A stretch of 63,771 nt of DNA, the filler included, from Craspedostauros australis (lineage: Eukaryota), in assembly GCA_030167865.1 (NCBI GenBank). It is 10 parts of 10 records of this genome, joined end to end, with 100 filler letters (N's around TTAATTAATTAA, not from the genome) between each part and the next. Parts side by side here need not be neighbours in the genome. Positions count along the whole stretch, not along the records: positions 1,924 to 14,231 come from JALAGF010002093.1; 9 more parts are not named here. The stretch is one strand, 5' to 3'. The translations under genes were made by a program, and so were the position numbers. The first letter of the stretch is position 1, and each line of letters begins with the position of its first letter. The notes beneath the pieces were generated by a model. The model did not search any database and was not told the origin of the DNA. It saw nothing but the letters and a program-made list of their open reading frames with translations. This document shows, one piece after another, positions 6,428 through 60,173 of this stretch.

Positions 6428-8914
6428 TTACGAGATGACCTCAACCTCCTTTGGCTTGTCGTCGTCGTCATCGTTGTCGGAAGCAGGCTTCTTCTTGGGC
6501 TCCTCCTCCTCCTCCTTCGCCGCAACGATTTCGGCTTCTGGCACGGCTTCGTCGGCATTGTTCGACATGAGCCCCATGACACGCTGCGCGAAGCTCTTCA
6601 TGTTGGAGACCTCGTATCCCGAAGTCATACCCGCCACGTCGTACAGGAGCATGGCGAAATCCTGCGTGGCCGGACTCTCCTTGTCGGCCTTGATCATGGC
6701 ATCCAAATCGCGAATGATGGGATGGTTGGCATTGATCTCCATCACGGCCTTGGTCAGTTTGCCCATGGGTAGGTCGTTGTCGCCGGACGCCACGGCCTGC
6801 GCGCGCATGTACCGTTGCATGGTGGGGCTCATACCGAACGCGCCCTGCACCAAGGCAGCGGGCGAATCCGTCAGGTCCGTCGACACGGTGACCTTCTGGA
6901 CCTTGTCGGACAGAAGAGTTTCGAGGAATTCGATGACGCTGATGAATTCGCGGTTGAGATCCTCCTTCTGCTTCTTGGCCTCGTCACCCTCCTCCTCGTC
7001 GACCTTGAGATTCTCCTTGGCGGCATCGACCACGTCGATGTCCTTGAAGTTGCGCAGCGATTCAAACATGATTTCGTCGAGCGGTTCGGTCGCGAAGAGG
7101 ACTTCGAATCCACGCGACGTGAGCTTCTCCACGACGGGGGACATGGCGGCGCCATCGCGGCCCTCGCCGGTGACGAAGTAGATCTGCTTCTGATTTTCGG
7201 GCATGTTCTCGACGTACTTGTCGAGGCTGGTGTACTCCTCGCCGGACTTGGAGCTGTAGAATCGCAGCAGAGGAGCAATGTCGTCGCGGTGCTTGTCGCC
7301 CTCGACGATGCCGACCTTCATGTACTTGCCGAAGTTGTTCCAGAAGAGGACGTACTGGGCGCCGTCGTCGTCGGCCTCGGCAATGTCGCGGATCATGTCG
7401 AGGGACTTGCGCACGAGGCGCTTGTTGATGATGCTGAGGACCTTGGACTTTTGGAGGATCTCACGCGAGACGTTGAGCGGGAGGTCGTTGGAGTCGACGA
7501 CTCCGCGCACGAACTTGAGCCATCGCGGCATGAGGTCTTCGAACTGGTCGTTGATGAAGACGCGCTTGACGTAGAGGCGAATGTTGCGCGAATTTTCATC
7601 GAACATGTCCTTGGACAGCTCGAAGGGGAGCGAGCCTGGGATGTAGAGGATGGACTTGCATTCTACCTGTCCCTCGAGGACGAAGTGGGTGTGCTTCAAG
7701 GGGTCGTCGAAGGAATTCTTGAAGGCGGATTTGTAGAAGTTCTTGTACTCGTCCTCCGTGACTTCGCGTGGGGATCGCAGCCAGATCGGCTTTTGCGTGT
7801 TGACGCGCTCGAAGGCCTCGGTGGTTTCCGGGACGGTCTTCATCTTTGGCTCCTCGCCTTCGGCAAGGTCCTTGTTGGCCTCCTCGTCTGGAACCTTCTT
7901 GTACTCCGTGGTCTCCTTCCAGACGGAGATGGGGAATTCGATGAATTCTGAATATCGCTGCAGCAGCGTCTCGATCTCGTTGGTGTCCACGTACTCGGCG
8001 GCGTCGTCGCGCATGTGCAGAACGAGCTTGGTCCCGCTGTTGCTCTCGATGATGTCGTCGCCCTCAATCTCCTCGATGGTGTAGGACGACTCCGCCTCGG
8101 AGATCCAACGGTAGGTCTTGGCCCCGTCCTGCATGGACTTGGTGATGACCTCGACCTTGTCGGCCACGAGGTATGCCGAGTAGAATCCCACGCCGAACTG
8201 TCCAATGAGGTTGACGTCGGCCGTGCCGTCGCCAAGGGCCTCGGCGAAGGCGCGCGTTCCGGATTGCGCAATCTTTCCCAGGTTGTTCATGAGCTCGTCC
8301 TTCGTCATGCCGACGCCACTGTCCTCGATGGTGATCGTGTTGTCCTCCGCGTTGGTCTTGATCTTGATTTCCGGCGGCGCGGCCGCGGCCTCGTCGGTGA
8401 TGGAGAGGAAGCGCTTCTTGTCGCAGGCATCGGCGGCGTTGGAGATGAGCTCGCGCAGGAAGATGTCGCGGTCGGAGTAGAGGGAGTTGATGATGAGGTC
8501 CATGACTCGGCCGACGTCGCTCTGCGGGGTTGTAGAATGCAATTCAATACAACAGAGCACGTGTTGTTGAAATCAAGTATGGTAGAATATTATATAATAT
8601 TTGGAGAAAACAGAACGGAATGGAATGCAATGGAAACGCATGGAAATGTTAGATACGATAGTGAAGCACACAGATGTGAACAATCGTCAACACTCTCGAG
8701 CAGCACCAATCGCATGACGATACGAAACCCAACGCACCGTGAATTCGTACTTCTCTGGCGCCGCAGTGGCATCGAGGGAGACGAGGGAATGCCTCTCAGC
8801 ATGCTGCAGATTGGGCTGAAAGGCGACCGAGCCGGTGCGCGATCGGAAGGCGGGTGCGAAGGCAGCAGTGGTGGCCGCCGTGGCCAAGACGAGCGCTGCG
8901 GATGTGAACTTCAT
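6428..8914 (-). CDS. HSP90: Plastid-targeted HSP90 (HSP90C-like); exons 8914-8738 and 8521-6428
   Basis: NSLYSDRDIFLRELISNAADA, IGQFGVGFYS, GVVDSNDLPLNVSRE and MEINANHPII. A phase-0 GT-AG intron at 8737-8522 gives KYEFT/SDVGRVMD. The N-terminus MKFTSAALVLATAATTAA-FAP is a signal peptide plus ASAFAP-type transit motif. There is no MEEVD or KDEL at the C-terminus. Confidence 0.95.
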
Positions 8915-9536: not shown

Positions 9537-10343
9537 ATGACAACAGGCATGACTCGTATTTCGTTGGCAGCATCGAAGCCTGCAGCTCTGGGACAACGAT
9601 TGGGTGCTGTTCTGTGCTCTCGTCCTGCATCCTTGTCACCATTGACAAGCATCAGAGCAGCAGCAGCACGAACAACAACAACAACAGCCATGCCAATCAG
9701 GCAGCAGCACACGGCATCCACCATCCAACAACCATGGAGGATCACCGCCAATCAGGCAATTCAATCAAGGCGCCATCCCCTCGCATTCACACGCAGATCC
9801 ATGGTGCAGATCACGCAAACGAAGGTCTCTCAGTTGTCGCCAGATGCTTCTATCGCCAGCGAACCAACTGTGACGAACACTAGCAGCAACATCAATGACA
9901 GCGCTGACAACAACAACAACAACAACAACACTACGACCGAATTCCTGCAACAGTACGAACTAGTATCGCAGGAGATACTGACGGTCACGGAAAGTTGCTT
10001 GAAACAGATCGAGGTCTTGATTCAGAAACAGCCACAAACGGGCCACTACTTGCGCGTCTACGTCGACGCCGGCGGCTGCTCCGGCTTCGAATACAAATTC
10101 GAATTGTGCCACGACGACCTCGAGGACGACGACATCGTCGTGGCCACAAAACGAGATGGTGCCACGCGGCTCGTCGTCGATGAGACCTCCCTCAACTTCC
10201 TGCGCGGCAGCACCATCGATTACGTGCGCGAGATGATCCGCTCCAGCTTCGTCGTGTCGCATAATCCACAATCGGAATCGGCCTGCGGATGCGGCTCGTC
10301 GTTCGCCGTCAAGAACTTTGGCTCCAATCCGGCTTTGGATTGA
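9537..10343 (+). CDS. IscA/ErpA-type (HesB family) Fe-S cluster assembly protein, ISCA2-like, with long presequence
   Basis: LRVYVDAGGCSGFEY, LVVDETSLNFLRGSTIDY and NPQSESACGCGSSF, which contain the three conserved cysteines. Confidence 0.92.
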   Translation: MTTGMTRISLAASKPAALGQRLGAVLCSRPASLSPLTSIRAAAARTTTTTAMPIRQQHTASTIQQPWRITANQAIQSRRHPLAFTRRSMVQITQTKVSQLSPDASIASEPTVTNTSSNINDSADNNNNNNNTTTEFLQQYELVSQEILTVTESCLKQIEVLIQKQPQTGHYLRVYVDAGGCSGFEYKFELCHDDLEDDDIVVATKRDGATRLVVDETSLNFLRGSTIDYVREMIRSSFVVSHNPQSESACGCGSSFAVKNFGSNPALD

Positions 10344-10390
10344 AGCGGTTTACGTTTATAATACTATTGCGTCCCGCAGTCTTTCGTAGT

Positions 10391-10834
10391 CTAACATTGT
10401 TTCGCAGCACGATTCTTGGACGCCGTCAGCAGTTGCTCTTGCGCGCGTTCCATCTCTTCGAGTTCTGATTTGGAAGGCTTTCGCTTCGAGCGTTTGGAGG
10501 GTTTCTGAGATGATGATGATGATTTGCGTTTGGCAATCGTCGTAGTTGTCTCAACCGCGGCCTGATGAGCTTGCTGAAATAAAGATTGAAAGTCCGGCAA
10601 CGACGCGAAGGCTTTGTGCAGATCTTCAATCGAAATTGCCCGGTTGGTATCTTCCTCATCGCAGTACGTGACCAACCGCTTGGCGACGATCTGCAAGAAC
10701 GAGAGATGCAGTATGCGCAAGGTTTGGACGGAGGCGTCCGTGAAGGCCACGTCCTCCGAACACTTCTGCAACGATTCCCAAAACACCGGCGCGTTGATGC
10801 AAAAGTGTGTTGGCGGTGATCGTTTGGCGGACAT
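10391..10834 (-). CDS. Divergent histone-fold protein, NC2-beta/Dr1-like
   Basis: From ATG 10834 (MSAKRSPP). The stretch DVAFTDASVQTL...FLQIVA...CDEEDTNRAISIEDLHKAF resembles the NC2b/NF-YB fold. A basic linker precedes ELEEMERAQEQLLTASK, resembling the Dr1 C-terminal helix. Recognised by eye only. Confidence 0.55.
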   Translation of the reverse strand: MSAKRSPPTHFCINAPVFWESLQKCSEDVAFTDASVQTLRILHLSFLQIVAKRLVTYCDEEDTNRAISIEDLHKAFASLPDFQSLFQQAHQAAVETTTTIAKRKSSSSSQKPSKRSKRKPSKSELEEMERAQEQLLTASKNRAAKQC

Positions 10835-10974
10835 GGTTTGTGTTTGGCGCTGTGGGATGGAGAGTGGTGTGGCGATAGCGCTTGTTCGGGTCTGTGCTGT
10901 GCTCTCTTGTTGTGCTTGGATTTGTGGCAGCAAAACGAGAACAACGAGCAAATCGCCACAACATGCAGCTGCGC

Positions 10975-10984
10975 AAAACAAAAA
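10975..10984 (-). terminator. Pol III oligo-dT terminator of the permuted tRNA
   Basis: TTTTTGTTTT on the minus strand begins after a 4-nt gap (cttc) following tRNA position 37. Confidence 0.6.
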
Positions 10985-10988
10985 GAAG

Positions 10989-11065
10989 TCGTAGTCAGAC
11001 GCCTTGCCGTTGGGCCAACAGGTCTCCAGAAACCTGCCCGGGATTCGAACCCGGAATCTTCTGAT
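10989..11065 (-). tRNA. Circularly permuted tRNA-Arg(ACG): 3' half 11065-11030, 5-nt spacer, 5' half 11024-10989
   Basis: Minus strand reads ATCAGA AGATT CCGGG TTCGAAT CCCGG GCAGGTT T ctgga GACCTGT TG GCCC AACGGCA AGGC G TCTGA CT ACG A. Swapping the halves gives a full cloverleaf: 7-bp acceptor stem (two G-U pairs), perfect T and anticodon stems, and anticodon ACG at 10992-10990. Confidence 0.88.
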
Positions 11066-11219
11066 GTCAAGTTCTGCCAACATTGCATCAATCAATGTTT
11101 CTAATCTCTTGCCAAATATGTCCATAATTTCATTTGGTTGAATGTGTTGACGCCTGCAGTGGAAACATGGCAACGAGGTAACCACAGAATGTAAAGAACA
11201 TCGAGCAGACGACGAGTAC

Positions 11220-12569
11220 CTACATACGCAAGGATTCACCCTTCTTCAGCGTCTCCAGGAACATGGCCTCCATCCGCGATGCCAACGACTTGGCTTCCAG
11301 CATGCCCACATGCACGCAGGCCACATTGGACCAGTACCGATGCCGATAGTGCTTCTGCCAGCAGCCCGTGATCCTCCAGATATTCCCATTCGTCCCGGGC
11401 CAGTAGCACACGTAGCCGTGTCCTTGCAACATATCGATCGCGTCCCGCAACCTCTGCGTCTTCCATTTACCTTTCCAATTGTACTCAAATTCCAGGTACT
11501 GCACCTGCTGCTGTGCCAGCAATTTCTGTCCACCCAACAGCACATCCAGATCGTATCCTTCCACGTCGATGCTGAGGAAATCGATCGTGCTGCTGGCGTC
11601 GCCGGTCATATACGACAGCGTTCCGACGTAGTCATCCAAAGTGTAGACCGGTATTTCGCTGCACAGTTTCACATCCTTGCCGTTTGCGTGAAGCTGCTGC
11701 TGCCGACGGCAATGATGCTCGAAATCCTTCAATCCACCCGATTCCGCACCCAGCAAGAACCGATCCGAGACCTGCATCGTGCCGCGATCCATGGCAAACG
11801 CTGCCTGCTCCAATATGAAGTCGTTGTTCCACTGCAGATGCAGCTTGGAACGGTACAGTTTCTCGAACGTCGCCGACACGGGCTCAAAACAGTACACGGT
11901 GGCTGGTCGGACCGACGTCGCCTGCACGTCGACTTGCGCCTTGTCGAACTGCGCGCAACTGCTGCCGGCAAAGCCCGATGCGTTATGTTGTTGCGCCGTT
12001 TGCGATTCCGACGATAACAGCGCGGATTTCCACACGTCGACATCGTACTTGGCATTCTGGCTGCCCATGCGCAATGCATTGACGGCATCGATGCCTTTGT
12101 TGCATCCGACAAAGAAGCTGACAAAGTGATCGTGCGATGCCGTCGTCGAGTACTCGGGTTGCAGCCACCGCATCGAATCGGGACAGCTCGTGGCACGCGA
12201 GAAGGAGCAGTTGCTGGTCCAGGGGAACTTCTTGTGCTTCTTGCAGTCCAATTCGGGCAGTTGCACGGAGAGGATCTCCATCTGTTCGGCTGTGCAATTG
12301 GGATGATGCGTCGCGATTTCCAGTTGTGGGTCCAGTCTTCGATTGATGGTGCTGGCGGATGCCGCTGTCAACGCATTCTGCGGATGTGTCTTTGGCAATG
12401 AATGGAAGGATCCATCCCTCTTCATCATGCCTATTGCGGACGGCTGTGATTGCAACACGGATGCGTGTTTGTTCAGGTGATGGGAAAGGAAGATCGGGCT
12501 CAACGTGACGAACGCAATGGCCATCACGAGCAGCACCCGCACGGGCCGGATCGTCCTGGTCCTCCTCAT
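11220..12569 (-). CDS. FkbM-family SAM-dependent methyltransferase with N-terminal membrane anchor
   Basis: FFVGCNKG, VYCFEPV, TLDDYV, IDFLSIDVEGYD and YLEFEY, plus a hydrophobic N-terminal segment. Confidence 0.88.
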   Translation of the reverse strand: MRRTRTIRPVRVLLVMAIAFVTLSPIFLSHHLNKHASVLQSQPSAIGMMKRDGSFHSLPKTHPQNALTAASASTINRRLDPQLEIATHHPNCTAEQMEILSVQLPELDCKKHKKFPWTSNCSFSRATSCPDSMRWLQPEYSTTASHDHFVSFFVGCNKGIDAVNALRMGSQNAKYDVDVWKSALLSSESQTAQQHNASGFAGSSCAQFDKAQVDVQATSVRPATVYCFEPVSATFEKLYRSKLHLQWNNDFILEQAAFAMDRGTMQVSDRFLLGAESGGLKDFEHHCRRQQQLHANGKDVKLCSEIPVYTLDDYVGTLSYMTGDASSTIDFLSIDVEGYDLDVLLGGQKLLAQQQVQYLEFEYNWKGKWKTQRLRDAIDMLQGHGYVCYWPGTNGNIWRITGCWQKHYRHRYWSNVACVHVGMLEAKSLASRMEAMFLETLKKGESLRM

Positions 12570-35147: not shown

Positions 35148-35562
35148 NNNNNNNNNNNNNNNNNNNNNNNNNNNNNNNNNNNNNNNNNNNNTTAATTAAT
35201 TAANNNNNNNNNNNNNNNNNNNNNNNNNNNNNNNNNNNNNNNNNNNNTGTTTTGTTCAGACCTTTTCTTGTTGATTGTTGCAGCTGCTGCATCCGTTCTT
35301 TCATCTTTGTCTTCGTCATTGCTGTTATCATCCTTGTCTCACTCTATGTTCGTAAACAATTCGGTGGACTCCGTCCTCGTGACTCGGGGAGGATGTCCAT
35401 CATGGCCGCTGTGGTATTCCCTGNNNNNNNNNNNNNNNNNNNNNNNNNNNNNNNNNNNNNNNNNNNNNNNNNNNNNNNNNNNNNNNNNNNNNNNNNNNNN
35501 NNNNNNNNNNNNNNNNNNNNNNNNNNNNNNNNNNNNNNNNNNNNNNNNNNNNNNNNNNNNNN

Positions 35563-36986: not shown

Positions 36987-38967
36987 AGAAGGCATCGGTA
37001 ACATCAACGTTGTCATCTCCACAAGCTGTGGATCCAGCTTCACCTACCTTGTCCAAGGGCCAACAGTCACTTTCCTTGGCATGGGTAGTATGCGAGAGCG
37101 AAAGTTCCGGCACCAAAAGCAGTCAACCATCATCGAAGCATTCATACCTCCTGACGGTGACTATGGATTATGCACATACTCAATCGAGATCTACCCAACA
37201 CAGGACTTCCATGATTCGTACATGACATCAACACCGTTCGTGTTCACAACCATCGTGACTCTCGTCTTCGCGTTGACCTCGTTGGTGTTCGTTGGTTACG
37301 ACAAGCTCGTTCAACGACGGCAGGAGAAAGTGATGAATTCCGCCGCGAAGACAGATGCCATTGTCTCGGAACTCTTCCCCTCCGAGTTCCGCGATCGATT
37401 GTTCCACAATCGAATTAGAGCCAGCAGCACCAATAAACTTGGTGCCATGCCACAGAAAGGTACGCTCACAGGAAGCAACGTGACAAATGGCGCTGGTACC
37501 GGCGGATCACCTGTCGCAGATTTATTTCCGCACACGACAGTGATGTTCGCAGACATCCAAGGTTTCACGGCATGGAGCTCAATGCGCGAGCCCACGCACG
37601 TCTTCACACTTCTGGAAGCTGTGTACAGCTCATTCGATCGGATCGCGAAGCGACGCAAGATCTTCAAGGTCGAGACTGTGGGGGATTGCTACGTAGCAGT
37701 AGCAGGTCTACCAACACCGCGCCCAGATCATGCGGTGATCATGGCGCGGTTCTCAAGAGAATGCGTCGTTGCCATCCAAGAAGTCGTCTGCAAGCTGGAG
37801 CTGTTTCTGGGCCCCGGAACCGGCAACCTCGGCATGAGGTTCGGGCTGCACAGCGGACCAACGACGGCAGGCGTCCTCCGCGGTGAGAAGGCGCGGTTCC
37901 AGCTGTTCGGCGACACTGTGAACACGGCCGCCAGGATCGAATCGACCGGTCTACCCAACCGCATCCAGCTCTCGCAGCAAACAGCTGATCAACTTGTGGC
38001 CAGGAACAAGGCGCATTGGGTGAAGCCACGCGAAGATGTCGTCTTTGCGAAGGGCAAAGGCGAGCTTCGAACATTCTGGCTTTGCGACAACGACGGTGAC
38101 ATCATCCAAGGACGGTCTACCATCACGGAATTGAACCAACATACCAGTGTTTCCAATGTCACAACGAAGGAGCAGCAGGCCGACCTTCACAAGGCTCGTG
38201 CGAATGATCAGACCATTCAACGGCTGGTCGATTGGAACACGACGTTTCTGCTCAGGCTTTTGAAACAAGTCGTCGCAAGTCGAGATCCCCACCACAGCAA
38301 CCAAAGCATCGGCAACATGGCTGAGTCTCGACTGGTCGAACTGGAGAGTACGGTTGGGCTGTCCGACACCGTACTGGACGAGATGATGCCCGTCGTGGAA
38401 TTGCCAGACTTCGCGCACCGCCACAAGCACAGCGAATCGTCCCCCGTAGATCTTCCGATTGATACTGAGAAGCAAATGAAGGACTTCATCACACTGATCG
38501 CGGCATCTTACCGAGGTAATCCGTTTCACAACTTTGAGCACGCCAGTCATGTCGCCATGTCGGTGCACAAGCTGCTCTCCCGCATCGTCGCACCGAAGCG
38601 CCCAGACATCATTCATGAGATGGATGGGACGAATCAGGATGCGAGCTCGAGGCGAGGTGCCGAGGAACTGCACGATCACACATACGGCATCACTTCTGAT
38701 CCACTGACTCAGTTTGCCGTCGTCCTCTCGGCCCTCATCCATGATGTCGACCATCGAGGCGTATCCAACGCACAGCTCATCGCTGAGGACGCCGAACTCG
38801 GGAAGACGTACAAGAACAAGAGCGTCGCGGAACAAAACTCCGTGGACGTCGCCTGGGGAATGCTGATGGCCAATCGCTTCAAGGCGTTGCGACGATGCAT
38901 CTACACCAACGGAGATGAGATGAGACGGTTCCGGCAGATCATCGTCAATTCCGTCCTCGCCACCGAC
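36987..38967 (+). CDS. Membrane-anchored class III nucleotide cyclase fused to an HD-type cyclic-nucleotide phosphodiesterase; partial at both ends
   Basis: TM segment, then cyclase motifs VMFADIQGFT, FKVETVGDCY, GLHSGP, FQLFGDTVNTAARIES and KGKG. PDE motifs follow: YRGNPFHNFEHASHV, LIHDVDHRG and LATD. Confidence 0.92.
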
Positions 38968-39067
38968 NNNNNNNNNNNNNNNNNNNNNNNNNNNNNNNNN
39001 NNNNNNNNNNNTTAATTAATTAANNNNNNNNNNNNNNNNNNNNNNNNNNNNNNNNNNNNNNNNNNNN

Positions 39068-43559: not shown

Positions 43560-44400
43560 CCTCGGATTCCATTGCTCGAGTTGAAGCAGGTTGGATACAC
43601 GTGTCAAGACTACGGCAGTGGTGCAGTAGTCATCAGCATGGAGAGAATCGAGGTATGTTGTAGTAAGAGGATCTGAGGAGCATATAGTTCCCAAGGTGAG
43701 GTGTGAGTCAGGTTGGTCATGCTTGAGTCATGATGGATTCGTGAATGGAGGAGAGAAAGGAGGAGAAAAGATTTGGTGGTCAATCAAGTCGAAAGATTTC
43801 ACGCCAAAACATATCAGCACAAAATCGAATAGTGCTAAGTTCGTTACTCCCGTAGCCCCCACTATCTATAAATTTCACTTGTGTTCGGTTCAGCAATCGC
43901 ATCGCCTGTAGCTCAACGGTAGAGCACCAGTAATTCTAACTGAGGTTCCGGGTTCGAATCCTGGCATGGTACTTTGCTTTTGCTCACCCCTTGTGATTTT
44001 TCGATAGTGCTCTAATAAAACAAGAATTTCTCCCATCGGGTTGATACCGTGTCCGGTAGTAGTCTGTCCCTTATTGAATCTCAATTCATCTTGATTGAGG
44101 TTGTAATTGAGAACATAGGTTGTCAAGCAATTGGAATTGCAGTTGGATTCCCTGCTTGTGTTGAAGCAGGGCGGATCTCCTTGTTGTTGTCGTGTGGAGT
44201 TGATTGTTGGCATGGCTGACAATGGAATCGAGATTGGCTGTAACACAAAGATTCAGAGGAGCATATAGTTCCTGGAGTGCGTTGAGTCCAGCGAATCAAT
44301 TGGTTTTGATTCAGCAATGATTCGTGAATGAAAGTGGGAGGAAAGGAGAAAGGAGGATTTTGCCGTATTCGTAGGCAGAAGGTTTCGCGCCAAAAGAACG
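43560..44400. repeat. Pair of diverged direct repeats (about 43560-43820 and 44145-44400)
   Basis: Shared blocks in the same order: GGATTCC..GCT...GTTGAAGCAGG, GAGGAGCATATAGTTCC, GATTCGTGAATG and TTTC.CGCCAAAA. Confidence 0.7.
43902..43971 (+). pseudogene. tRNA-like sequence (pseudo-tRNA or SINE head)
   Basis: A box TAGCTCAACGG and B box GGTTCGAATCC, with intact D and T arms. The acceptor stem pairs poorly and the anticodon loop AATTCTA is non-canonical (no U33). Confidence 0.7.
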
Positions 44401-58294: not shown

Positions 58295-60173
58295 CTCTGT
58301 TCTGAGCCTCCATGTCAAGACTTCGCGTGGCGACCAACTCCTTCGCAAGCATCAAGCGAGCAAGGACGGTCGAGCTGTGTATCAGAGTCTCGTTGAGATT
58401 TACACCAATGGTGTCAACGGTGAGAGCGCGGCGATGGCACTTCGTGCTCGCATCGCCTCCTTCACCTTGGATAACAGCTGGAAGAAGAACCGTGAGAACT
58501 TCGTGGACACCTGGCAGGGAATCATCTCCGATATCGAAGATATGGAAGATGACGCTCTGCCGGACAACACGAAGAAGACGTGGTTGCACAACTCGATTGC
58601 TCCGGACAAGGACCTCCTCAATGCTCTCACGAGCACTTCCTACGTCCGCGACGAGATGCTCGCAGCTATGCCCTCCGGTTTCGAGATCAAGGCGGCTGGA
58701 TTCGATCACCATCTCAACTCGGTTCGGATCCATGCTCAGCGCCTCGATTCTTCCCACCCTCGTCAGACGCAAAAGCGTAACGTCAACAACGCTGCGACAG
58801 GGAAAGGAAAGGGTGGTTCTTCGGGCAAGTCTCCTGCCAAAGGCAACGGCAAGACTTACACCAACGACAAGCGCGGCCGCATTCCGAATGAGGAATGGGC
58901 AACCATGTCTTGGGCCCAGAAGAAGGACTATATGCACAACAACCCCTCCCGTAGTGCTGGCAAGGGCGACACCTCGCGTGCCGCTAATAAAGCCAAGTCC
59001 TCGGGTAACTCTTCGTCCACTCCGGCGACCAACGCTCCCGCTTCCTCCGACGCTGGCGGCAATGCGGATTCAAAGGGCGGTCCTCCGGGATCTGCTATCA
59101 ACCGCATGCTCGCGCAGGCTCGTCAGTCTGGTCAATCGACCGCTGATTTCGTCGATTCGGATGGCGGGGCGTGGCGACGGGTGAATTCTACCGTGGTCCG
59201 ATACAACTTCGAGACCTCGGTGGAGACGAAGACGGGTGCGCTTGTCGACAGTGGCGCCAATGGCGGCCTCGCTGGCGACGACGTGCTAGTTCTGTGCAAG
59301 ACGGGCACCACGGCGGACGTGAGCGGCATTGGTGATTCCACCATTGCGAGCCTGGACATTGGTACGGTCGCGGCCCTGCTTCACACGAGCAGCGGCCCGA
59401 TCATCGCCAAGTTCCACCAGTACGCTCTGTACGGGAAGGGCAAATCCATCCACTCCACCAACCAGCTCTCTGCGTTCGGTATGGATGTGAATGAACGCCC
59501 GCGTGGTCTCCCTGGTGGTCGGCAGACTGTCGTCACACCTGAGGGGCACGTCATCCCTCTGTCCATTCGTGCTGGCCTATCCTACATGGATATGCGCCCG
59601 CCAACCCCTGCTGAGATGGATCGGTACCCTCATGTGGACTTCACGTCCGATGATGTCTGGGACCCTTCCATTCTCGATCAGGAGTTCGGTCTTGATGATG
59701 TCCGCGCTCTCGCGGACGATGATGATGATGGTTCCGCATTCGCCGACCTCGATCGCCTGCATGTATATGCGGCATCGACGGATGAGGCGCGCGGCACTGT
59801 ACCGCATTCCGGGTCCGCTGGCANNNNNNNNNNNNNNNNNNNNNNNNNNNNNNNNNNNNNNNNNNNNNNNNNNNNNNNNNNNNNNNNNNNNNNNNNNNNN
59901 NNNNNNNNNNNNNNNNNNNNNNNNNNNACTTCCCAGTGGTACCGCACTTCGGAACGATTCGCGATGCGCAAGCATTTCCGCACTCGTTTTCCGGCGGCCA
60001 ACGTCGATCGTCTCCACGAGACGGTCGCGATGGACACTTTCTTCTCTGATACGCCCGCTCATGATGACGGTGTCCCTGGCCATGGTGGATGCACCATGAT
60101 CCAGGTGTTCGTTGCGCTCGACTCTCGGTACACATCGGGATTCCCGATGGCGTCCGAGCGGCAGGTCGCGGAC
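58295..60173 (+). mobile_element. CoDi-type Ty1/copia gag-protease-integrase region, partial
   Basis: Gag-like helical region, aspartic protease ALVDSGANGG, HQYA..GKGKSIHS..QL, GRQTVVTPEG, and integrase start RFPAANVDRLHETVAMDTFFS. Confidence 0.9.

Follow-up and report, generated by a model that had tools for sequence, protein, structure and literature searches.

Circularly permuted transfer RNA (tRNA) genes have been listed 34 times in seven organisms: one red alga, four prasinophytes, one nucleomorph and one archaeon (PMC3978253, Table 1). A 2025 preprint adds, in its accessible part, the green alga Auxenochlorella (PMC12633428). Circular intermediates and junctions of the bulge-helix-bulge (BHB) type are described in red and green algae (PMC3978253, sections 4-6 and 8), and nuclear introns placed between tRNA positions 37 and 38 normally have relaxed motifs, the eukaryal endonuclease measuring from the mature tRNA body and using an anticodon-intron (A-I) pair (PMC3978253; accessible part of Yoshihisa 2014, PMC4090602). 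Here we describe a locus of the diatom Craspedostauros australis (assembly GCA_030167865.1), located in a stretch of 63,771 nucleotides in which 10 parts of 10 records are joined end to end (the window, meaning the whole stretch of DNA analysed). The locus is probably a nuclear type II (37/38) permuted tRNA-Arg(ACG) gene of a diatom, with a relaxed splice motif in its flanks, of the 'no H' kind, H being the central helix.

The gene is on the minus strand and runs from 11075 down to 10980 in the order leader, 3' half, spacer, 5' half and trailer; both halves lie on one strand, the 3' half first, and the spacer joins position 73 to position 1. Put together, the two halves make a 72-nucleotide class I cloverleaf with the anticodon ACG, whose order is broken at 37/38. 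The 3' half (11030..11065, positions 38-73, from A38 at 11065 to U73 at 11030) includes the 3' strand of the anticodon stem, the variable loop AGAUU, the T arm CCGGG UUCGAAU CCCGG, the 3' strand of the acceptor stem (GCAGGUU) and U73. It is followed by the intervening sequence CUGGA (11025..11029, 5 nucleotides), which links position 73 to G1 (11024) and closes the acceptor stem into a loop, and by the 5' half (10989..11024, positions 1-37), with the acceptor 5' strand, a D arm with G18 G19 C20, the strand UCUGA and C32-A37. U8, G18G19, U33 and UUCGAAU are all kept. Read on the minus strand, the leader ends in GGC AGAA CUUG AC before A38 and the UCAGA that follows it, and the 5' half ends in UCUGA C32 U33 A34 C35 G36 A37, followed by C UUCU UUUUG in the trailer. 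In the window, as read from the DNA, 37/38 is the sole split that yields a seven-nucleotide loop, CUACGAA including A38; in relatives whose trailer starts in A, a 38/39 junction would yield an identical product.

ARAGORN found zero tRNAs across the window and in 26 related loci, and Rfam at its gathering threshold did not report the permuted gene, its single match in the window being an unrelated tRNA-like unit (43907-43966). A scan of the 63.8-kb window for T arms gave one Arg-type T arm plus one odd tRNA-like unit and no others, and scanning the related loci in the same way for other tRNAs gave one false positive and nothing else. BLAST found a single matching region in the window, indicating one gene copy.

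Relatives were collected by scanning JGI metagenome contigs with a pattern that admits only the permuted order (the beginning of the 3' half and the end of the 5' half, separated by 46-76 free bases). The scan gave 32 matches in 29 loci (L numbers below), all of them in permuted order; the identical pattern had 0 matches in a 596-Gb prokaryote collection, and a looser regular expression found no extra copies. Window and relatives together amount to 33 matches, 29 of them distinct, and to 28 once L011, whose trailer is lost at the contig end, is dropped. No locus is a positional orthologue of the window locus, because five window proteins, searched by tblastn against the 29 loci, found no match. 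The nearest relative, L007, has 97% identity over the tRNA and the spacer CUGGU; the spacer between 73 and 1 measures about 5-21 nucleotides among the relatives. Numbering the leader negatively from A38 and the trailer positively from A37, 18 distinct genes, the window included, have G at -3 (class A, alignment A1). In this alignment all four cloverleaf arms are paired in 100% of cells, and stems change on both sides (T stem: CG 14, UA 4; acceptor stem: UA 12, AU 4, GC 2). The de novo prediction of RNAalifold on A1 has exactly the four arms of the permuted cloverleaf. Judged by this conservation, the permuted cloverleaf is under selection and the gene is real.

The signals around the gene are also shared, to different degrees. 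A T run of at least four begins 4-19 nucleotides past position 37 in 27 of the 28 distinct genes; in the window it is a T5 run (10980..10984, minus strand), a likely RNA polymerase III terminator whose first T doubles as the last base of the outer helix discussed below. The family has an A/T-rich peak at -45..-36 upstream of A38, with 82-93% A/T at -42..-36. The window has there a weak A/T-rich stretch, AGATTAGAAA (11098..11107, minus strand, at -42..-33), where most relatives carry TATA-like words; the best TATA-like word near the gene is CATATTTG (11113..11120, minus strand), 48-55 nucleotides upstream of A38. C-A-A is the commonest word at -11..-9 in the family, and the window matches it with C-A at -11/-10. 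We take the conserved CAA to be a possible transcription start site, as in plant tRNA genes.

Three of the metagenome loci, L015 (2001-2596), L017 (19-272) and L027 (2001-2205), each contain two permuted copies in tandem, 52-450 nucleotides apart. Reading from the 5' half of one copy through the spacer into the 3' half of the next, L017 and L027 each yield a standard-order gene with an 'intron' of 50-100 nucleotides, an arrangement that is the intermediate expected under the tandem-duplication model of origin (Soma 2014, PMC3978253, section 10). L004 (100-300, minus strand) has a second permuted Arg(ACG) copy without a T arm, which BLAST picked up as a second match about 130 nucleotides from the intact copy; its flank pair -7/+2 is C-G, compared with U-A in the intact neighbour. 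This second copy is likely a pseudogene.

The initial annotation had proposed that leader and trailer of the permuted tRNA, from 10984 to 11075, can form a relaxed BHB at the 37/38 break, and the coordinates and pairs that it gave were reproduced: AGAA/UUCU makes four Watson-Crick pairs, C32-G and A34-U pair, and U33.U and C35.C are mismatches. AGAA starts at 11075 and UUCU ends at 10984, so that the two limits mark the outer ends of the 4-bp helix. All on the minus strand, the leader strand of this outer helix, AGAA (-10..-7), occupies 11072..11075 and the trailer strand, UUCU (+2..+5), 10984..10987. Between them, the leader CUUG (-6..-3, 11068..11071) faces C35..C32 (C32-C35 at 10991..10994), with two of the four central positions paired (G-3:C32 and U-5:A34; U-4.U33 and C-6.C35 are unpaired). 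The putative 3' bulge A-C-A38 (11065..11067) would contain the 3' cut, between 11066 and 11065, and the putative 5' bulge G36-A37-C(+1) (10988..10990) the 5' cut, between 10989 and 10988. The spacing permits bulges of exactly 3 + 3 nucleotides, which exist only if the centre pairs; the place of the 5' one is fixed by a closing pair that covaries in the relatives (17 of 18 genes). The A-I pair joins position 32 to intron position -3. Here G11068, at -3, is opposite C32 and would close the 3-nucleotide bulge, C32 being invariant, so that covariation cannot prove this pairing. Measured against the strict hBHBh' motif (h and h' the flanking helices, B the bulges), both flanking helices are longer than 2 bp (anticodon stem 5 bp, AGAA/UUCU 4 bp), and the 4-bp central helix H is not formed (two of four pairs, energetically unfavourable). 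By the legend of Fig. 2 in Soma 2014, a junction with both flanking helices and 3-nucleotide bulge spacing and no proper H is classed as relaxed. The motif that we propose consists of the 5-bp anticodon stem, the bulge A-C-A38 with G-3:C32 as its closing pair, a centre with little pairing, the bulge G36-A37-C and the AGAA/UUCU helix.

How often such flanks arise by chance was estimated from 384,773 random leader/trailer pairs taken from the window in the same register: four of four Watson-Crick pairs occur in 0.45%, together with G at -3 in 0.115%, and with at least two of four central pairs in addition in 0.082%. Leaders are A-rich and trailers T-rich across the relatives, and when leaders and trailers of different relatives are combined, 30 of 294 combinations (10%) reach four of four standard pairs. 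Because a tenth of these mismatched combinations also pair in full, the flank pairing of the window is by itself suggestive, and the case for more than chance rests on the relatives, not on the window alone.

Across these relatives the outer helix covaries. Compensatory changes in the flanks of related loci, which had been named as the check on the proposed pairing, were found in all four pairs, each of which changes on both sides. In class A the helix -10..-7/+2..+5 is paired in 73.6% of 72 cells, compared with 47.4 ± 4.3% in shuffles (0 of 500 reach the observed value), and its covariation score is 0.672, compared with 0.207 in the shuffles. Registers slid from this one have 31-61% of cells paired and a covariation of 0.165 or less, and permuting leaders against trailers never reached the 53 pairs observed among 72 (0 of 20,000 permutations). 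The pair -7/+2, beside the 5' bulge, is standard in 17 of the 18 genes (AU 6, CG 4, UA 4, UG 2, GU 1), and -8/+3 in 14 of 18, with four types. The helices themselves have different sequences, such as AAGU/ACUU, AAAC/GUUC and CGAA/UUCG, and AGAA/UUCU in the window. Over all 28 distinct genes, the pair closing the 5' bulge is standard in 27.

The second recurrent element is a G in the leader, at -3 in 18 distinct genes and at -4 in the 10 that make up the rest of the 28. In class A, the central positions are paired in 61.1% of cells (G:C32 in 18 of 18 genes, A:U33 in 13, U:A34 in 5 and G:C35 in 8), the A opposite U33 being at -4 in 13 of 18. Positions 32-35 are invariant, which puts the central helix beyond a covariation test. 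The 10 genes with G at -4 (class B, alignment A2: L001, L005, L007, L008, L012, L018, L020, L023, L024, L026) have a perfect 4-bp helix, GURG:CUAC, between leader and anticodon loop (40 of 40 cells), predicted in 9 of the 10 when the cloverleaf is enforced, and a 3' bulge of four nucleotides (-3 to A38) compared with three in class A. All 10 have a standard first outer pair, of four types among them, and 57.5% of the cells of their whole outer helix are paired. What appears to be kept across relatives is a helix just outside the 5' bulge, one nucleotide past position 37, and a G able to face C32; the central helix seems less constrained than either.

Several observations weigh against reading the flanks as a splice motif. 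The relatives share kinship, which the shuffle control ignores; this concern is tempered, because pairing also persists after the 28 genes are merged into 14 flank clusters (first outer pair standard in 13 of 14: AT 7, TA 2, CG 2, GC 1, GT 1; second in 10 of 14). In class A the outer helix has 26% unpaired cells, its two distal pairs may partly owe their pairing to the start-site CAA and the terminator, and RNAalifold on the 18-gene alignment has no flank helix. When the cloverleaf is enforced, the first outer pair is predicted in 13 of the 18 class A genes and G-3:C32 in just one of 18. In the window, the 102-nucleotide precursor is predicted to fold no more stably than its shuffles (z -0.02), and the outer helix gains just 0.6 kcal/mol over the bare cloverleaf (-25.1 compared with -24.5 kcal/mol). 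The central pairs cost energy: adding the A-I pair gives -21.4 kcal/mol and both central pairs -19.3 kcal/mol, compared with -25.1 kcal/mol for the outer helix alone. The minimum free energy (MFE) structure of the window precursor keeps the outer helix and uses a shifted inner register (C35-G, G36.U, A37-U), which gives -27.5 kcal/mol. Lastly, the TATA-like element of the window is weak at the family position (AGATTAGAAA) or displaced by about 14 nucleotides further upstream (CATATTTG).

The claims of the initial annotation are in part supported by these data. Its view of the flanks as a processing signal finds support in the outer helix, which covaries in exact register, but not in the central helix; RNAalifold predicts no helix in the flanks. 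Likewise, the BHB geometry with a conserved C32:G pair retains the G at -3 (18 of 28) and the covarying outer helix and loses the proper 4-bp centre. Its suggestion that the enzyme would need relaxed specificity is superfluous: the weak centre needs no special enzyme, because relaxed motifs are the norm for nuclear 37/38 introns and the eukaryal enzyme takes its measure from the body of the tRNA (PMC3978253, sections 3 and 8; PMC4090602, accessible part).

Other explanations bear on the same observations. The shifted register of the MFE structure (outer helix plus C35-G(-3), G36.U(-4) and A37-U(-5)) would bury both cut sites in or beside helices, and the window copy could be a poorly processed or decaying paralogue within a functional family. 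The predicted energy, 8 kcal/mol better than the drawn BHB centre, speaks for this, as do the same shifted helix predicted in four relatives that share A37 and the leader GUUG (two copies each in L017 and L027) and the weak or displaced TATA-like element; decay does occur in the family, because L004 carries a dead copy without a T arm beside an intact one. We nevertheless hold it to be unlikely: the tRNA body of the window is intact, 97% identical to the nearest relative and with all cloverleaf pairs kept, the outer helix has four Watson-Crick pairs in the family register with the T5 run in place, and of all cells in the 18 class A genes, 57.4% are paired in the shifted register compared with 61.1% in the drawn one, so that the family does not favour the former. 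Helices as short as these may, moreover, open upon binding of the enzyme to the tRNA body.

That the complementarity of leader and trailer is a by-product of composition, a purine-rich start of the CAA type facing a T-rich terminator while the enzyme finds 37/38 from the tRNA body, agrees with the ruler mechanism described for the eukaryal enzyme (PMC3978253; PMC4090602, accessible part), with the one in ten mismatched combinations that pair in full (30/294), with the mostly A-U nature of the two distal pairs (AU in 7 of 18 and 9 of 18) and with an outer helix that is thermodynamically marginal and absent from the RNAalifold prediction. It is, however, rather improbable, since the strongest covariation is in the two bulge-side pairs, outside CAA and largely outside the T run, since slid registers retain composition and relatedness and yet have fewer pairs and little covariation, and since the first pair is kept in nearly every flank cluster (13/14). 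Very improbable, in our judgement, is a maturation of the ends that bypasses the splicing endonuclease, either by other nucleases trimming before the ligase acts or by read-through of tandem copies as an intron-type gene. The three metagenome loci with two copies 52-450 nucleotides apart, of which L017 and L027 yield a standard-order reading across copies, would suit the latter, but the window has a single copy (one Arg-type T arm in 63.8 kb and one BLAST region), T runs separate the tandem copies, and the conserved 3-nucleotide spacing of the 5' bulge and the G at -3/-4 fit the predictions of the endonuclease model.

If the locus is a permuted gene with a relaxed splice motif, we infer the following route on the algal model, in which each enzymatic step and both cut sites are proposed. 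RNA polymerase III would transcribe the leader, the 3' half, CUGGA, the 5' half and the trailer, and would stop in the T5 run. The halves would form the cloverleaf, the spacer closing its acceptor stem; the tRNA-splicing endonuclease would dock on the mature body and cut after A37 and before A38, the outer helix holding both ends together and G-3:C32 marking the 3' site. A tRNA ligase would then join A37 to A38 into a circle, from which RNase P and tRNase Z would excise the spacer, and CCA would be added.

The surroundings of the gene, and the gene itself, look like those of a diatom. An open reading frame (ORF) for an FkbM-type methyltransferase (11220-12566, minus strand) adjoins the tRNA, and its organism-named matches are all diatoms (Seminavis 49%, Cylindrotheca 47% and Thalassiosira oceanica 40% identity); an Hsp90 ORF (6428-8560, minus strand) has its best named matches in Nitzschia, Phaeodactylum, Cylindrotheca, Seminavis and Fistulifera (70-76% identity). 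These protein matches speak against a prasinophyte source such as Bathycoccus. The neighbour of the gene in the metagenome locus L020 has best named matches to diatoms, mostly centric: a Cha... MMETSP strain, Conticribra, Cyclostephanos and Thalassiosira; for L017, a Protein Atlas search gave no informative match (best score 0.88). At D-loop position 20, in our numbering, each of the 29 distinct genes carries C or U. According to the accessible part of Igloi 2022 (PMC8975779), this is a peculiarity of nuclear tRNA-Arg in diatoms, and A20 is present in the remaining photosynthetic stramenopiles of that study.

Further observations concern the rest of the window. An iron-sulphur (Fe-S) assembly gene (IscA-like, 9537-10343, plus strand) and the permuted tRNA gene converge; a contig from one public run, whose RNA origin is a guess, covers this gene, spans 10000-10852, stops about 130 nucleotides short of the tRNA terminator and resembles the 3' end of the IscA-like transcript. 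The tRNA-like unit at 43907-43966 (plus strand; flanks 43860-43990) matches the Rfam tRNA model with 32 bits over model positions 6-65 only, and ARAGORN is silent on it. It has TATAAAT about 38 nucleotides upstream, CAA near the start and TTTT after it, acceptor strands paired by eye at 4 of 7 positions and an anticodon loop AAUUCUA with A at position 33; possible identities are a decayed tRNA, an element derived from a tRNA and some other disrupted gene. An ORF at 37081-39015 (plus strand) has a guanylate/adenylate cyclase domain and a cyclic-nucleotide phosphodiesterase domain and is broken by a run of N (38968-39011). Such runs are found at 23 places of the window (e.g. 1824-1867, 35424-35562 and 59824-59927), mostly as paired blocks of 44 bases 12 bases apart, and several ORFs are interrupted by them.

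The mechanism proposed here is a known one; what seems new is the host lineage and the isoacceptor. Searches of the openly accessible literature found no report of a permuted tRNA for diatoms or for Arg(ACG). More tentatively, it is possible that diatoms as a group encode their cytosolic tRNA-Arg(ACG), which reads CGU, CGC and CGA, only in permuted form, in an arrangement that predates the split of centric-like and pennate-like lineages, is missed by standard finders and has flanks with two splice-motif designs. Beyond red and green algae and nucleomorphs of green origin, diatoms would then be the first lineage known to rely on the circular-intermediate pathway. The two designs, canonical spacing with almost no centre and a perfect centre with a 4-nucleotide 3' bulge, would point to an endonuclease guided by the tRNA body more than by the motif. 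A diatom permuted Arg(ACG) gene with a covarying flank would extend the phenomenon to stramenopiles, which are major marine primary producers. Inventories of diatom tRNAs can miss such a gene (ARAGORN is silent), and the 28 natural variants offer a comparative series of the motif parts that a eukaryal endonuclease keeps under selection.

Compared with the archaeal hBHBh' motif and with Thermofilum pendens (PMC3978253; accessible part of PMC3218864), the diatom locus has the same spacing for two 3-nucleotide bulges four positions apart and flanking helices longer than 2 bp, and differs from the strict form in its central 4-bp helix, which is unformed in the window (2/4). The junctions of T. pendens are at 59/60 and its CCA is encoded (Chan et al. 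2011, PMC3218864, accessible part; PMC3978253). With Cyanidioschyzon-type genes of C. merolae the locus shares the permuted plan, a T-stretch downstream, a motif of the BHB type and, in weak or displaced form, an A/T-rich or TATA-like element upstream (Soma et al. 2007 and 2013, as related in PMC3978253; PMC3728597, accessible part), as well as a route through a circular intermediate, which is proposed here from sequence alone. C. merolae has junctions at 20/21, 37/38, 50/51 and 59/60, often with extra introns (PMC3978253), and its circular intermediates and aminoacylation were shown experimentally, whereas the diatom gene is known from its sequence.

Ordinary nuclear 37/38 introns, processed by the Sen/TSEN enzyme with its ruler, resemble the diatom junction in its proposed cut sites, in a putative 3-nucleotide 3' bulge closed to position 32, in a loosely defined motif and in a mature body free for docking. 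They differ in that the diatom 'intron' is open-ended, consisting of leader plus trailer; splicing would therefore yield a circle, and the acceptor end must be opened afterwards. Of the 34 genes in Table 1 of PMC3978253, none is an Arg(ACG) and none is from a stramenopile. Green-algal junctions are there termed hBH, in the portion of the text accessible, and the diatom junction differs in having both flanking helices and a defective centre. Among known cases, those most like it are the type II genes of Ostreococcus, Micromonas and the Bigelowiella natans nucleomorph (Maruyama et al. 2010, as related in the accessible portion of PMC3978253). The host is unlike theirs, a diatom (stramenopile) and not a green alga or a green-derived nucleomorph; with these prasinophyte and B. 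natans genes, as described in the same portion of that review, the diatom gene shares a relaxed junction motif at the canonical position and a T-stretch after the gene, and with B. natans also a spacer of 5 nucleotides.

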